Shown one piece after another: positions 1-18,898 of a stretch of 64,000 nucleotides of DNA. This stretch comes from Tubiluchus corallicola (lineage: Eukaryota; Animalia; Priapulida): positions 1 to 64,000 of the forward strand of contig JAQGDQ010000810.1 in assembly GCA_030141605.1 (NCBI GenBank). The letters run 5' to 3'. Position 1 is the stretch's first letter. Each line of letters begins with the position of its first letter. The notes below the pieces were generated by a model. That model ran no database searches, was not told the origin of the DNA, and worked only from the letters and a program-made list of their open reading frames with translations. Position numbers and translations under genes: made by a program.

Positions 1-654
1 TCTTGCGGTTTTAGCGTTAATTGAGCGGAATCTACGACCAGAGGGGGGCATTTCAAAATATTTATTACGTGGATGGAATATTGCGCTCTCTTTGCTACCC
101 TAGTTTCGTACAAATTTGCCAGAGATTGTTGTTCAACTCCTATAATTTTCAAGGCGGATTTAACAACTTGATCAAAAGCATTGTGATCTCCGTGAGTGGT
201 AGCGCCATCGTACCAAACAGTGAGGGATGTTATTAAGACGCTCTCAGTTACTGCATTAAAAACTTTCCACCCCATGGTCCAGCAGGAGAAATGTTAAGTG
301 ATTTCAGTCTACAACTTAGAAACTTGTATTGATGCGTCTCTTAAAAAGTACAGACGCTGGCGTGCCTTTTTTACTCAATAAAGCTTCCCATTTAAGATAC
401 AGATTAAAACATACTTATTTAAAATAGCATGCAATCTTTGAACTGACCAAATGATTTGTCGTTATTATGCTTGTATTTTGTAAATCTGTGTGTTTTTATG
501 TATTTACTTACTGTAATTTTGTGAAAATTTAGTAGGATTTCTGTTTAATCTTATAAACCTTTTTTGTAAGCTGATGATTTTAGAAATCTTTGTGAAGCGT
601 CTTTGAATATTGTCAGTTGTGTTGTCTATAGAGTTAGATGCTATACAAAATAAA

Positions 655-690
<36 letters not shown>

Positions 691-870
691 GTTATTGTTA
701 TTGTTATTTTTATTATTATTATTGTTATTATTATTATTATGTTATTGTTGTTTTTGTTATTATTATTATTATTAATATTATTATTATTATTTTATTATCT
801 ATTATTATTATTATTATTATTATATTATTATTATTATTAATATTATTATTATTATTAATATTATTATTAT
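1..870. repeat. Left arm of long inverted repeat (runs off window start)
   Basis: Reverse complement of ~7074-7942. Differs by a few substitutions, a 1-bp indel and microsatellite length. Confidence 0.97.
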
Positions 871-1010
871 TGTTATTATTACTATCATTATTATTATTAT
901 TATGTTATTATCATTATCATTATTATTATTATTATGTTATTGTTGTTTTTGTTATTATTATTGTTATTGTTATTATTATTATTATTATTATTAATATTAT
1001 TATTATTATT

Positions 1011-1047
<37 letters not shown>

Positions 1048-1049
1048 TA

Positions 1050-1080
<31 letters not shown>

Positions 1081-1143
1081 TATTATTATTATCATCATTA
1101 TCATTATTATTAATTATTATTATTATTATGTTATTGTTATTGT
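652..1143. repeat. Imperfect (TAT)n microsatellite
   Basis: Direct reading. Mirror (ATA)n at 7074-7295. Confidence 0.97.
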
Positions 1144-1238
1144 AAAACTCTCCATCTCAGCAGGGTGATGCCTTCATTGCTTTACCTTCCTCTTACGTCA
1201 TTTTATCGGTTTTCATCAGTGTTACGTTTCTTTCATAG

Positions 1239-1345
1239 ATCCCAGCAAAGTCGTTCACACGGAAGTGGCTCTCGTGCCGGACGAGTTTGACAGTTATCAA
1301 GTGGGAGTTGATGCGGACGTCACGTTCTGTTTGAAAGAGTTAAGG
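1239..1345 (+). CDS. RAD9: RAD9 exon 7, opposite strand to exons 1-6 ([36 protein letters not shown])
   Basis: TTTCATAG acceptor, GTGGGT donor, 107 nt, phase 1 to 0. Contains the RAD9 hallmark TFCLKE(F/L)R. Confidence 0.95.
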
Positions 1346-1490
1346 GTGGGTGGTGCTCATTTTACACGGAAATAGCGAATTTGCAAAACTGGTCGAATAA
1401 GTTTTGCGCTTTGCGTTCGAACAAAATTGACCGTACGTCACTGCTTTGCTAGGTTTCATCATATGTTGATTGAGGAGGTGCGTTTAGCCG

Positions 1491-1642
1491 TGTTACTTGA
1501 ATTCAAGGTTGTTTGCTGTGTTACTTGAATTCAAGGTTGTTTGCTGTGTTACTTGAATTCAAGGTTGTTTGCTGTGTTACTTGAATTCAAGGTTGTTTGC
1601 TGTGTTACTTGAATTCAAGGTTGTTTGCTGTGTTACTTGAAT
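1491..1642. repeat. 28-bp minisatellite, ~5.4 copies (TGTTACTTGAATTCAAGGTTGTTTGCTG)
   Basis: Perfect tandem units. Confidence 0.95.
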
Positions 1643-15372: not shown

Positions 15373-15423
15373 ATAAAGCACTTTATAAACCTGCTAACCT
15401 AAAACACAAGTGATTAAACTTAC

Positions 15424-15561
15424 CTTCATGGCAATTTTGCATCTGACTGAATCTTCCTCGATATCAACAGCATCGCTAACGACAAATGACGCGAAAAATG
15501 TTCTTCTGAACAAAAAACACGCGTAGGCCGATCTGGATGAATTCACGGTTCTCAAGGCGAG
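15424..15561 (-). CDS. RAD9: RAD9 exon 3 ([18 protein letters not shown]...VRCKIAMK)
   Basis: TTTAG acceptor, GTAAG donor, 138 nt, phase 0 to 0. Contains the RAD9 signature [16 protein letters not shown]. Confidence 0.97.
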
Positions 15562-16138
15562 CTAAACATGGAAATAAAAAGCTTGTGAAGTATTTAGTAA
15601 ACGAGCAGCGTTATTACAAAAAAAGAAATTGAAAACTATACCAAAATCGAATTTTTCATGAGCTGAACTGAAATTAAAATCAAAACTGAAATTCCTTTGA
15701 AAACTAATCAATTATGACACGAATATAAGTGTATATATACTGAACACTCCGTACAAGTTTGATTTTAAGAGATGAATTGGTTACTGTGCGTGATTAGCGA
15801 CAGCAGTTATGCAGCGCTGAGCCTGATTAGTGAATGAATAGGTGACCAACGGTTCAATATTCATTCCGGGTGGTTCCACATTGCATGCGTGTGTTTGTCT
15901 CATGAGGGAAGATGCATATGAATCTCATCTTGGTAGCCCACACATAATAACAAAAAAGTTCCAGTACCACCACCAGCTACATAGATCTACTAAGCTGTAT
16001 AGGTGAGTGCTGGATTCAAGTTTGCTCAGTGAAAACTGTAAAATTTACTATTGCAGGCAGTAAACGTGTTTTAACCACTGCTGGAAATTGAACTCAGGAC
16101 TTTGTTTTACCGTTACTACACGATTGCTAGATGCTTAC

Positions 16139-16209
16139 ACTTTCCTCCAGCGGTTCAAAGTACAACTCATCGCCGATCTTTGAGAGCGAATGAATGGCAC
16201 GAGCAAAAA
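16139..16209 (-). CDS. RAD9: RAD9 exon 2 (IFARAIHSLSKIGDELYFEPLEES)
   Basis: TTTTAG acceptor, GTAAGC donor, 71 nt, phase 1 to 0. Matches the RAD9 motif HSLSRIGDELYLEP. Confidence 0.95.
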
Positions 16210-16393
16210 CTAAAATTAAAAGAAAAAAGGTAAAGAACTAATAAACTGAACATAGAACGTAACCACCTATTAATAAGCACAAAAAAAATCTATGGTGTGA
16301 CTGTCTGGCTAGAGATACAATTTACATTGCAGTTAAAGATAAAATAATTACTTACCGTACATAAATTAATTTAGTCTACCAGTTACTAATTAT

Positions 16394-16873
16394 CTGAAAC
16401 AGGCCGGGGGGTTTTGGGGTTCGCATAGGCCCCCATGGGGGTTCAAGGGGGCGAAGCAACAAATTGCAATTTTGTGACTATAGAGAGCCTCTAAGTGGAC
16501 TTAAAATATCAGTTACCTTGTTTCATGCATAATTTAAAATACCCGACTATCAAGGATACATGATACCTAATTGTCTCAAAAACGCCAAAGTACTGGCCGC
16601 TCCTATGCAAAAGTATATAAAAACCGTCTGCAATTGACTCACATAACTCCACACAATTGATTCTATATTTTTATACATAGAGATATACACGTGGTTACAC
16701 TGATGTATGTGATATAAACAAAGTGACGGCCTGCCACCTAGCGGTCAGTTTGTGAAATAATGCACTGGGTCCGTAAAAATTTTCTCAACGATTTTTTGCG
16801 ATTTATAAAAATGGCACTACTGGTCTTCCAAAAACTCGGAATCCCGCGTACCTGCGGAAAATTCTCATCCCTG
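16394..16873 (-). mobile_element. CAGGGATGAGAAT-TIR MITE, copy 3 (inverted, one TIR lost)
   Basis: Reverse complement of the family sequence. Confidence 0.88.
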
Positions 16874-18169
16874 ATTGTTTACTAACAACTCCTGCACAAG
16901 TAAAGTGACAGGTGGGGAAGACACTGGTTGATATTAGGACTGACGTACGACCTGCTATGATCACAAGGGACCCACACTGAATAGTCTAGTGGTCACGGAA
17001 CTGCAACTATAATCCAAAAGTACCCAGTTCAAACCCAGACTCGGTCTCAACTCTCACACATTTTTTATTTCGGCTCAAGTTTGGTTTCAGAAATTTTAAT
17101 AAATTCCACCATTCTTAATCTTACCATTATTAAGCTTACAGATAATTGGTTTATTAGTTTTGATTGTTTCATGCCTGAAAAATTGCTTTGCATTATTATT
17201 ATTATTATTATGAGTTTATTTCGTATAAAAATATACAGTTTACAAAGATAAAGATGTTAGTAAAACAGGTAATGCGATGTTAGTAAAGTAACATATCTAC
17301 AGACGTTCAACTTTATAATAACCACACATTGTAGTTCCCTTGTAATTATATTACAGTATACAGTCTTGTAAGGAGCTATAATAGGTATCTTAAAACATAA
17401 TCTTTAAATGAGTTCTTAACCTTTAATTTTAAATTTTCGTTTAGATCTACAGTACAACCATATTTAAATCTTAAATTTACTTTACTGTTATTTACGTTGT
17501 GATTTAAACTTTCAAATAACAAAAGTCAACATGATAAGATGCGTAATTGGTATCAATTTAGCATGGCAAAATAAACAATGGTAAATACATTAAGGGAAGA
17601 GAAAATAATTGAACGAAAAACTAAAACTATAGTATAGTAAACGAATACTGTACTAATATTATTATAGTGAAAAGAGCTAATCAAACATTAGCAATGATAA
17701 AGGAACAGTTTGTATCTAGAGACATCACCCAAATTCGACCCAGTATAGATTTTCATTCAATAGCTGCGTTTATAAATTGACTGCATTGCTTGTTTTTTGT
17801 GTGAATTTGTCACATTGATTACTGATTGCTTTTGTTCATTTACTCCATTTAAGACTTACTGCACAAATTTTCTTCCTTTTGTTTTTGTTTTGTTGTGCAT
17901 TCATTATTTAACTACATTTTCGTTCACTCGCTGCATTTTAGTTCACTCGCTGCATTTATGATTTAACCAGATTGCTTGCTTTTTTGTTGTTGCATTCATG
18001 ACTTGTTCAGTTGTTGTTTTAATATTTAACTGCATTATTTGCTTGCTTTTTTTCCATTGGTATAATTATAATATAACTGCTTTGCATTTTGTTTATTTGC
18101 TACACTTAAGACCTAACCACGTATTTATTCACTTAGCCATGTAGTCTGCCGTGCTTTATAATATTTCTA

Positions 18170-18304
18170 AGTTATGTAGGGGTGGCTGACTCGATGACCT
18201 CCTGGTCTTTCGCCACCCCATCTCTACATACTTTGTATAATTTGTTGTATTTGCGCTATAAATATTATATTAGAGATAAATAAACCTTTGAATTGAATTG
18301 AATT
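18170..18304 (+). mobile_element. LINE (L2/Crack-like) 3' tail with stem-loop and (TTGAA)n; related tail at ~54990-55100 (-)
   Basis: GGGGTGGC...GCCACCCC stem, AATAAA, TTGAATTGAATTGAATT. Confidence 0.55.
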
Positions 18305-18770
18305 TAGTAAGACCCAAATCAGAGTATTGTGTACAAGCATGGAATCCACACTATAGAAAATACATACAGCTTCTAGAGGGTGTGCAGGGTAGGGTGATCA
18401 ACATGATTGAAGGTATGGAAGAAATATCAATACAAGAGAGGCTTAGGAAATGATCACTTACAACCTTACAGCTGAGAAGACGTACAGGAGACTTGATACA
18501 AACGTATAAAATTATGCATTGGTTAGGTGGCAATGAAACAGAAAAAACGTTTACACTGGCAAATAATGGCACAACCAGAGAGCATTCGCTGAAAATTTAA
18601 AAATAAAATATAGAGCTAAATCGGATTTTGGAAAATAATTTTTCACAGAAAGGGTTGTTAGAGAGTGGAATTTACTCCCATCTGAAATCGCTAAAGCTTC
18701 TTCGGTAAACAATTTCAAGAACAAGCTGGATAGATATTTAGATACGAAATATGGGTTGCAATTAGCTTGC
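18305..18770 (+). mobile_element. CR1 LINE RT C-terminal fragment, degenerate
   Basis: YCVQAWNPH..K.I..LEGVQ...ERLRK..LTTLQLRR..GDLIQTYKIM...FFTERVVREWNLLP, with stops and frameshifts. Confidence 0.88.
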
Positions 18771-18864
18771 TCAATCAACTTCTACCACTCTTATATTTTA
18801 AGAGTGGCGATATGGCAACTGTAAAATATGTAATTTGAGAACGAAAATGATCAGGAAGTTTTAC

Positions 18865-18898
18865 TCTTAACATTGATTCCTGGTATGATGCACTTCAT
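18865..18898 (-). CDS. RAD9: RAD9 coding exon 1 (MKCIIPGINVK, ends phase 1)
   Basis: ATG at 18898, GTAA donor after 18865. Matches the N-terminus of human RAD9A (MKCLVTGGNVK) as I recall it. Confidence 0.9.

Follow-up and report, generated by a model that had tools for sequence, protein, structure and literature searches.

RAD9 is present as a single copy in the window, the whole 64-kb stretch of DNA analysed, and is likely colinear in the animal; its split between the two strands most likely arose when the assembly folded back on itself. The probable cause is a chimeric join at 7074/7075, made on a 5-nt microhomology, that leads the assembly from one haplotype into the other.

Exon content of RAD9

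Nine intact RAD9 exons, six on the minus strand and three on the plus strand, encode 298 codons with zero stops in the window (Table 1). All inner splice sites are GT-AG and the phases agree across the exons, the phase-1 end of exon 6 matching the phase-1 start of exon 7. These points, the codon count apart, had been made in the earlier note, and they were confirmed when the coordinates were re-derived. The Rad9 profile of Pfam (PF04139) matched six of the eight exon translations scanned, exons 2 to 7, in profile order. Exons 8 and 9, scanned singly, gave no PF04139 match, and exon 1 was left out as too short. Exons 3, 4 and 7 each exceed the curated cut-off of 25 bits on their own, and by this curated profile the exons belong to the Rad9 family. 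In a tblastn comparison with the 43 full-length homologues listed every exon matched one place only, exon 1 weakly (residues 1-10 in 21 of the 43, best E 0.22), which bears out the earlier statement that no exon occurs twice. The closest of the listed homologues is Lingula anatina RAD9A (P0050), which is 68.5% identical to the spliced product across residues 1-269 of the latter.

RAD9 in the window is incomplete, because exon 9 closes with a GT donor and the tail of the homologues is absent from the 64 kb. The 43 listed homologues are 386-565 aa long, all with a conserved acidic C-terminal tail. The tail of Rad9 family homologues measures 90-270 residues, and it is missing from the 298 codons found here. 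A six-frame motif scan of the 64-kb window gave 0 matches to the acidic tail motif, and tblastn with the 43 full-length homologues gave no tail match below E 0.6 in the same window. Since exon 9 ends with a donor, the tail exons may sit outside the window. Nothing suggests a changed RAD9 protein.

Table 1. Features of the RAD9 region in window coordinates
Feature	Position	Strand	Evidence or remark
Left arm: intron 6 LINE fragment, likely allele B	1..654	+	ends at window edge
Full TAT microsatellite (655-1129) and 3′ end of intron 6	655..1238	+	pyrimidine tract, AG
RAD9 exon 7, phase-1 start	1239..1345	+	PF04139 178-210, 31.1 bits; tblastn
RAD9 exon 8	2969..3033	+	tblastn
RAD9 exon 9, GT donor at end	3985..4143	+	tblastn; further exons absent from window
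28-bp satellite, 66 units	5221..7074	.	within intron 9
Putative fold-back junction	7070..7074	.	5-nt microhomology GATAG, satellite unit/microsatellite
Right-arm TAA/TAT microsatellite, shortened, 215 nt	7075..7289	.	189/190 positions match left array
Right arm: LINE-like fragment of intron 6, likely allele A	7290..7942	-	
5′ part of intron 6	7943..8840	-	end of LINE frame at 7943-7990, lacking in left arm
RAD9 exon 6, phase-1 end	8841..8947	-	PF04139 140-173; tblastn
RAD9 exon 5	9805..9904	-	PF04139 107-137; tblastn
RAD9 exon 4	11646..11760	-	PF04139 69-105, 36.5 bits
RAD9 exon 3	15424..15561	-	PF04139 24-67, E 2.5e-10, 40.7 bits
RAD9 exon 2	16139..16209	-	PF04139 positions 1-22; tblastn
RAD9 exon 1 (start codon, 34 coding nt)	18865..18898	-	weak tblastn match

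The two arms as copies of one intron 6 locus

The inverted repeats reported to flank exons 7-9 are real as matching sequences: segments 1-654 and 7942-7290 align at 99.4% identity, with 3 mismatches and 1 gap, and the similarity carries on within the TAT array as far as about 886 / 7070. They are not two equal, complete arms. The left arm is truncated by the window edge at base 1 itself, within the LINE reading frame, its full length lying beyond the window, and in the right arm this frame continues beyond 7942 to about 7990. The TAT arrays differ in size, 475 nt on the left and 215 nt on the right, and the right array adjoins the 28-bp satellite. The left copy of intron 6 runs continuously into the exon 7 acceptor, as a cis intron does.

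In the right arm the LINE is a composite of the end of a reverse-transcriptase ORF on the plus strand and a 3′-UTR-like piece with AATAAA and a tail on the minus strand, a shape that presumably reflects twin-priming. A Pfam match to PF09004 at 7569-7631 (E 6e-5) is a motif that we take to belong to the LINE. Two of the three LINE pieces scanned against Pfam had no match, and five neighbouring ORFs gave nothing above the cut-off. No convincing target-site duplication flanks the LINE, the best candidate being one 8-nt AT-rich match. Words mirrored between 7943-19000 and 1-7074 were transposable element words only.

Because the broken LINE and the microsatellite interruptions are common to both arms, these are best read as copies of one intron 6 locus, likely its two alleles. 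The divergence of the arms (0.61%) compares with 0.50-0.82% between contigs and window nearby (4 contigs among the matches listed); the arm contig differed in two letters. Two independent LINE insertions were rejected as the source of the arms on account of the shared composite structure and interruptions. Two Rad9 paralogues with complementary halves were likewise rejected, as the arms share these features and no exon occurs twice.

Copy number in sequencing runs

Copy number was estimated from per-contig depth in public runs, contig depth being by the tool's own account a poor measure of copies. Among the contigs listed for these runs, none extends across an entire stretch. Summed per-bin depth was left out of the estimates, as it is swamped by repeat families. 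Run X1 is a deep public run, presumably from the assembled individual. Run X4 was compared over 7290-10050 and run X6 over 2585-5210; uncovered parts in runs X2, X3 and X4 were not counted as absence.

In run X1 the contigs over exons 5-6, over exons 8-9 and over the LINE ORF part of the arm each have a depth consistent with two copies in a diploid genome. The two-copy flank depth was 182 (range 140-220), and the arm contig 7529-7823 had a depth of 165.2, equal to 1.98 copies, against expectations of 164 (two copies), 238-252 (three) and 327 (four). The corresponding z values were -3.0 for four copies and -1.8 for three; even the lowest flank estimate would call for a depth of 230 or more with four copies and of 177 or more with three. 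For run X2 the depth of arm contig 7540-7862 was 5.19, versus 5.65, 7.55 and 4.63+2.8 in the flanks. The two-copy depth of the arm makes a real repeat pair or a true duplication unlikely.

The flanks gave a consistent picture. Among the matches listed for run X1, alternative alleles were found near exon 5 (depths 77.7, 79.5 and 86.1) and near exons 8-9 (76.8 and 81), at about 80x each. The similar depth of exons 5-6 and exons 8-9 shows neither of the two blocks to be duplicated or hemizygous. A hemizygous exon 7-9 block was rejected, both alleles being present there in run X1. In the eight longer flank contigs listed for this run depth falls as the share of variant words rises (Spearman -0.81, p 0.015), which agrees with heterozygous sites in the flanks; in this segment heterozygous sites are spaced about 200 nt apart.

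One part of the arm behaved differently. The second arm contig of run X1, 7330-7488, had a depth of 208.2 (corrected 237), which exceeds the flank range and comes close to the value for three copies. The same region reached 14.1 in run X2, and 6.74 and 11.7 versus 4.34 in run X4, about double in both. Summed depth in the bins of 7330-7488 was 3000-4800. We attribute the excess to near-identical copies of the family that would lie elsewhere in the genome. Run X6, which we guess to be RNA, gave three repeat-derived contigs over 2585-5210 and left exons 8 and 9 uncovered, and has no bearing either way.

Overall, the 3-4 copies per diploid genome that go with two real inverted copies on one chromosome were not found, one 3′-UTR contig running higher. 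As in a fold-back, the arms diverge as much as alleles do and total depth shows no increase. The depth of the read contigs favours mis-orientation or a haplotype fold-back, the first of the options in the earlier note. The cassette between two real long inverted repeats that it described is at odds with the two-copy depth of the arm LINE ORF in run X1 and with the allelic divergence.

The strand switch and its possible origin

The strand switch joins segments about 6.0-6.2 kb apart on a 5-nt overlap. Its overlap is short and the segments lie less than 10 kb apart, as in an inverted chimera; an overlap of 5 or more nt arises in 1.6% of random position pairs.

Read from left to right, the assembly goes from intron 6 by way of exons 7-9 into intron 9 and its satellite. 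It then switches strand at the microhomology and returns through intron 6 and exons 6 to 1. Template switching in the library or a single bad read may have supplied the join. Intron 6 would in this way have been doubled, likely once per haplotype, into a false inverted repeat. In the animal we would expect exons 1-6, one intron 6 of about 2.1 kb, exons 7-9, the satellite and then the tail exons. Such a gene is predicted to splice normally in cis and to yield an ordinary subunit of the 9-1-1 checkpoint clamp, which is the function of the Rad9 family. Against the fold-back stand the distance of 6 kb, which sits in the tail of the distance distribution of chimeras, the exclusion of three arm copies at a z of only -1.8, and contig 7330-7488, deeper than the flanks in runs X1, X2 and X4.

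A true heterozygous inversion of about 6 kb, with exons 7-9 reversed in one haplotype and the other intact, predicts two copies throughout and matches every depth result as well as the fold-back does. Its breakpoints would lie in the TAT array and the satellite and be mediated by microhomology, with no repeat pair; the assembler would enter by the inverted junction and leave through the intact intron 6, so that a hybrid carries both arm alleles. Template switching during germ-line replication leaves short microhomology, and the 5 nt at 7070-7074 suit it too. We nevertheless hold this reading to be unlikely: it requires a haplotype switch within a segment so rich in heterozygous sites, it would make the sequenced animal a carrier of a null allele in a conserved checkpoint gene, and the reciprocal junction is absent from the window. 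The polymorphic inversion proposed earlier survives in this form, with microhomology at its breakpoints, and falls as an inversion between repeats.

The assembly may also be correct as one haplotype, with a real inverted duplication of intron 6, either as a short pair flanking an invertible exon 7-9 block or as a long one with exons 1-6 repeated on the plus strand to the left of the window. The sequence as assembled agrees with this, as does the deeper contig 7330-7488 in runs X1, X2 and X4, and three copies lie just 1.8 sd from the flank estimates. It is an improbable reading all the same, since the ORF part common to both arms has two-copy depth (X1, X2), four copies are 3.0 sd off, exons 5-6 are no deeper than exons 8-9, and the arms diverge as alleles do. 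Scarcely credible is a fixed split, with RAD9 mRNA made by trans-splicing of antiparallel pre-mRNAs or with exons 7-9 flipped on and off under regulation: the intact exons and splice sites on both strands that speak for it are expected equally of an intact colinear RAD9, a fixed repeat pair demands four arm copies, which depth rejects, and the cis-like continuity of the left intron 6 with the exon 7 acceptor argues against trans-splicing. The flippable cassette or trans-spliced gene of the earlier note thus finds no support here.

If the fold-back reading is right, the significance of the locus is one of assembly quality only, a RAD9 model that is broken and incomplete; the locus then shows that a haplotype fold-back, with exons intact on either strand, can pass for an invertible cassette. 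A junction that was real and heterozygous would mean that a core checkpoint gene carries a naturally occurring null allele, and with a fixed split RAD9 would be trans-spliced or switchable, the first such case for this gene.

Comparison with known systems

In the assembly RAD9 resembles Drosophila mod(mdg4), its 5′ exons lying on one strand and its 3′ exons on the other. In the available part of PMC4387717, mod(mdg4) offers many alternative 3′ exons, each driven by a promoter of its own, and its last 5′ intron holds a conserved TSA core; its trans-splicing is also treated in the accessible portions of PMC13490949 and PMC12692577. In contrast, the RAD9 exons in the window are constitutive, and the duplicated intron points to a join at the DNA level. 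The TSA core, a motif taken from the same part of PMC4387717 and known from Drosophila only, had 16 matches in the window with up to 3 mismatches (chance mean 21.4), and none of the 16 fell within intron 6. Titles and opening lines of abstracts in the literature searched describe no trans-spliced or inverted RAD9.

Inversion of intron 22 of F8 is a repeat-mediated intragenic inversion, according to the portion of PMC3211038 at hand, and likewise leaves some exons reversed relative to the rest. Inversions of this type need two real inverted copies in one chromosome, whereas the depth at RAD9 indicates one per haplotype.

The commonest amplification chimeras, in the accessible text of PMC9984789, are inverted joins with 5-8 nt of overlap between segments less than 10 kb apart, their distances peaking at 250-300 nt. 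As far as the available parts of the sources go, HiFi assemblies acquire false inversions and loop-back paths from such chimeras (bioRxiv 10.64898/2026.06.11.730069), and inverted chimeras arise in ligation libraries too (PMC13141652). The RAD9 join departs from the typical case in that it spans 6 kb, that the library here may not be amplified, and that the arms seem to be different alleles, so that the two sides of the consensus probably come from different haplotypes. It shares with these long-read chimeras a strand switch over less than 10 kb, a 5-nt overlap, and a false inversion with an apparent inverted repeat.

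RAD9 exons and predicted product

The nine RAD9 exons lie where the earlier note had placed them, and their spliced coding sequence runs for 298 codons without a stop. As it had also claimed, every inner splice site is GT-AG, and the end of exon 6 (minus strand, 8841) and the start of exon 7 (plus strand, 1239) share phase 1. Six of the eight exon translations scanned matched Pfam Rad9, keeping the order of the profile. With exon 3 as query 63 homologues were obtained, and the 43 with at least 380 residues were kept. In comparison with these, every exon has one place in the window, and the spliced product shows 42-68% identity, highest with Lingula RAD9A. 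Judged by these matches, the source is an invertebrate and the encoded protein an ordinary Rad9. Completeness of the gene was not borne out: exon 9 closes in a splice donor, and the tail is absent from the window. The homologues (386-565 residues) end in a conserved acidic tail, which was found neither by a motif scan of the 64 kb (0 matches) nor by tblastn over the same 64 kb.

Other features of the window

Features of the window and their coordinates
Feature	Coordinates	Strand	Remarks
RAD9 exons 1-6	18898-8841	-	
RAD9 exons 7-9	1239-4143	+	
Left arm of apparent inverted repeat	1-654		
Right arm of apparent inverted repeat	7290-7942		
Likely first coding exon, another gene	19254-19410	+	head to head, ~350 nt upstream of RAD9 start codon; no Pfam match above cut-off
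5S rRNA match	10062-10180	+	full length (model 1-120), 100.9 bits; RAD9 intron 4, antisense
Long open frame	32860-34284	+	474 aa
Long open frame	39288-41564	+	758 aa
Interspersed repeat, six copies	2112-2530, 4194-4683, 16393-16873, 28166-28634, 38682-39200, 49014-49513		420-520 nt
Unrelated minisatellite arrays, at least eight	5221-7074, 11911-12786, 26690-27565, 29767-30373, 43989-45888, 46609-48346, 52698-54211, 61716-64000		0.6-2.3 kb, units 25-197 nt

The 5S rRNA match may be either a gene or a young pseudogene or SINE head. The two long frames, in which a Pfam scan gave no match, are probably large exons of low-complexity proteins. The interspersed-repeat copies are 87-96% alike, and three lie within RAD9 introns; as assembled, those at 2112 and 4194 are inverted relative to the copy at 16455. 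Because summed depth in sequencing run X1 exceeds 1 million at 4257-4608, this repeat must be very abundant in the genome.

The arms as parts of one intron

Each arm consists of a LINE-like fragment; on the right side its reading frame extends to ~7990. One piece of it matches PF09004, which we take to be the end of LINE ORF2; the back-to-back ORF and 3' UTR presumably reflect twin priming. The left arm does not truly begin at base 1, as had been supposed: the window itself begins there and cuts it.

The arms are 99.4% identical across 654 nt and share their composite layout; their interrupted TAT microsatellites also agree, at 189 of 190 positions. In the right arm intron 6 keeps its native 5' flank, on the exon 6 side, and in the left arm its native 3' flank (remaining array, pyrimidine tract, AG and exon 7); combined, the arms yield a single intron 6 of 2136 nt. 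On this layout the arms are one locus represented twice. Their difference (0.61%) compares with 0.50-0.82% between four flank contigs and the window, and the simplest reading is that they are two alleles.

Copy number of the flanks

Six public sequencing runs were listed, four of them with matches to the searched stretch; all consist of contigs, and none is annotated as RNA. Depth was taken from these contigs (X1, X2 and X4 being a single sample), as a rough copy measure on eight contigs per run among the matches listed; 7290-10050 was compared with X1, X2, X4 and X3, and 2585-5210 with X1, X2, X3 and X6. Among the matches listed, X1 allele-only contigs near exon 5 had depths of 77.7, 79.5 and 86.1, and those near exons 8-9 had 76.8 and 81. 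In one of these contigs 140 nt are identical to the window, and within that stretch the other allele departs from it at 10 places. In eight longer X1 flank contigs (depth 105.8-210.4; three repeat-derived contigs at 4418-4590 and the short allele contigs left out) depth fell with a growing proportion of variant words (Spearman -0.81, p 0.015). This is consistent with heterozygosity at these sites and points to X1 being from the assembled animal or a close relative. These eight set two-copy depth at 182 (range 140-220). From the allele and flank depths, exons 5-6 and exons 8-9 are each present in two copies per diploid genome; therefore a duplicated 5' block and a hemizygous 3' block were both rejected.

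Around exon 5 (9597-10027) the X1 and X2 alleles are 4-7% apart, against 0.5-0.8% elsewhere; two of the allele differences listed (9818 and 9838) fall inside the exon.

Origin of the strand switch

A chimeric molecule or mis-join probably made the strand switch in RAD9. By flipping the strand it would let the assembly path leave one allele and return along the other; if each haplotype carries one arm, the window would have to be a path through both alleles in opposite directions. A true heterozygous inversion of ~6 kb, with its breakpoints at microhomologies and assembled into a two-haplotype hybrid, fits the same depths but seems rather unlikely. Under both readings an intact colinear allele and normal cis-splicing would account for the intact exons.

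A genuine repeat pair, or else a long inverted duplication, is improbable. The X1 arm contig at 7529-7823 has a depth of 165.2, against expected depths of 164 (two copies), 238-252 (three) and 327 (four); whichever two letters differ there, four copies would require a depth of 230 or more and three copies one of 177 or more. X2 agrees (5.19, against 5.65-7.55 on the flanks), and the arm divergence lies within that of the flank contigs. In its favour, three copies are just 1.8 sd from the flank estimates, and depth is higher over the arm's 3'-UTR part (X1 208.2, 237 corrected; X2 14.1; X4 6.74 and 11.7). This part falls in bins where repeat-family copies total 3000-4800, and the excess putatively comes from words common to these copies. 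Since both parts occur in both arms, the shallower one bounds the copy number.

Trans-splicing or a switch of RAD9 is highly improbable, as it requires a fixed arrangement, which depth rejects, and intron 6 contains no match to the mod(mdg4) TSA core (PMC4387717). Among the titles and abstract openings listed by literature searches, no split RAD9, trans-spliced or inverted, was found.

Most likely, then, the split arrangement is not a feature of the genome. At the putative chimeric join the right-arm TAT array ends after 215 nt and is followed by a 28-bp satellite (5221-7074, 66 units); they meet on five letters (7070-7074) that suit the satellite unit as well as the left array. This is modest evidence of a template switch, because such an overlap is expected in 1.6% of random position pairs and the left array has two sites able to give it. 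Inverted joins with 5-8 nt overlap, <10 kb apart, are the commonest amplification chimeras (PMC9984789), in HiFi assemblies inverted amplification chimeras lead to loop-back paths and false inversions (bioRxiv 10.64898/2026.06.11.730069), and inverted chimeras also arise from unamplified ligation libraries (PMC13141652).
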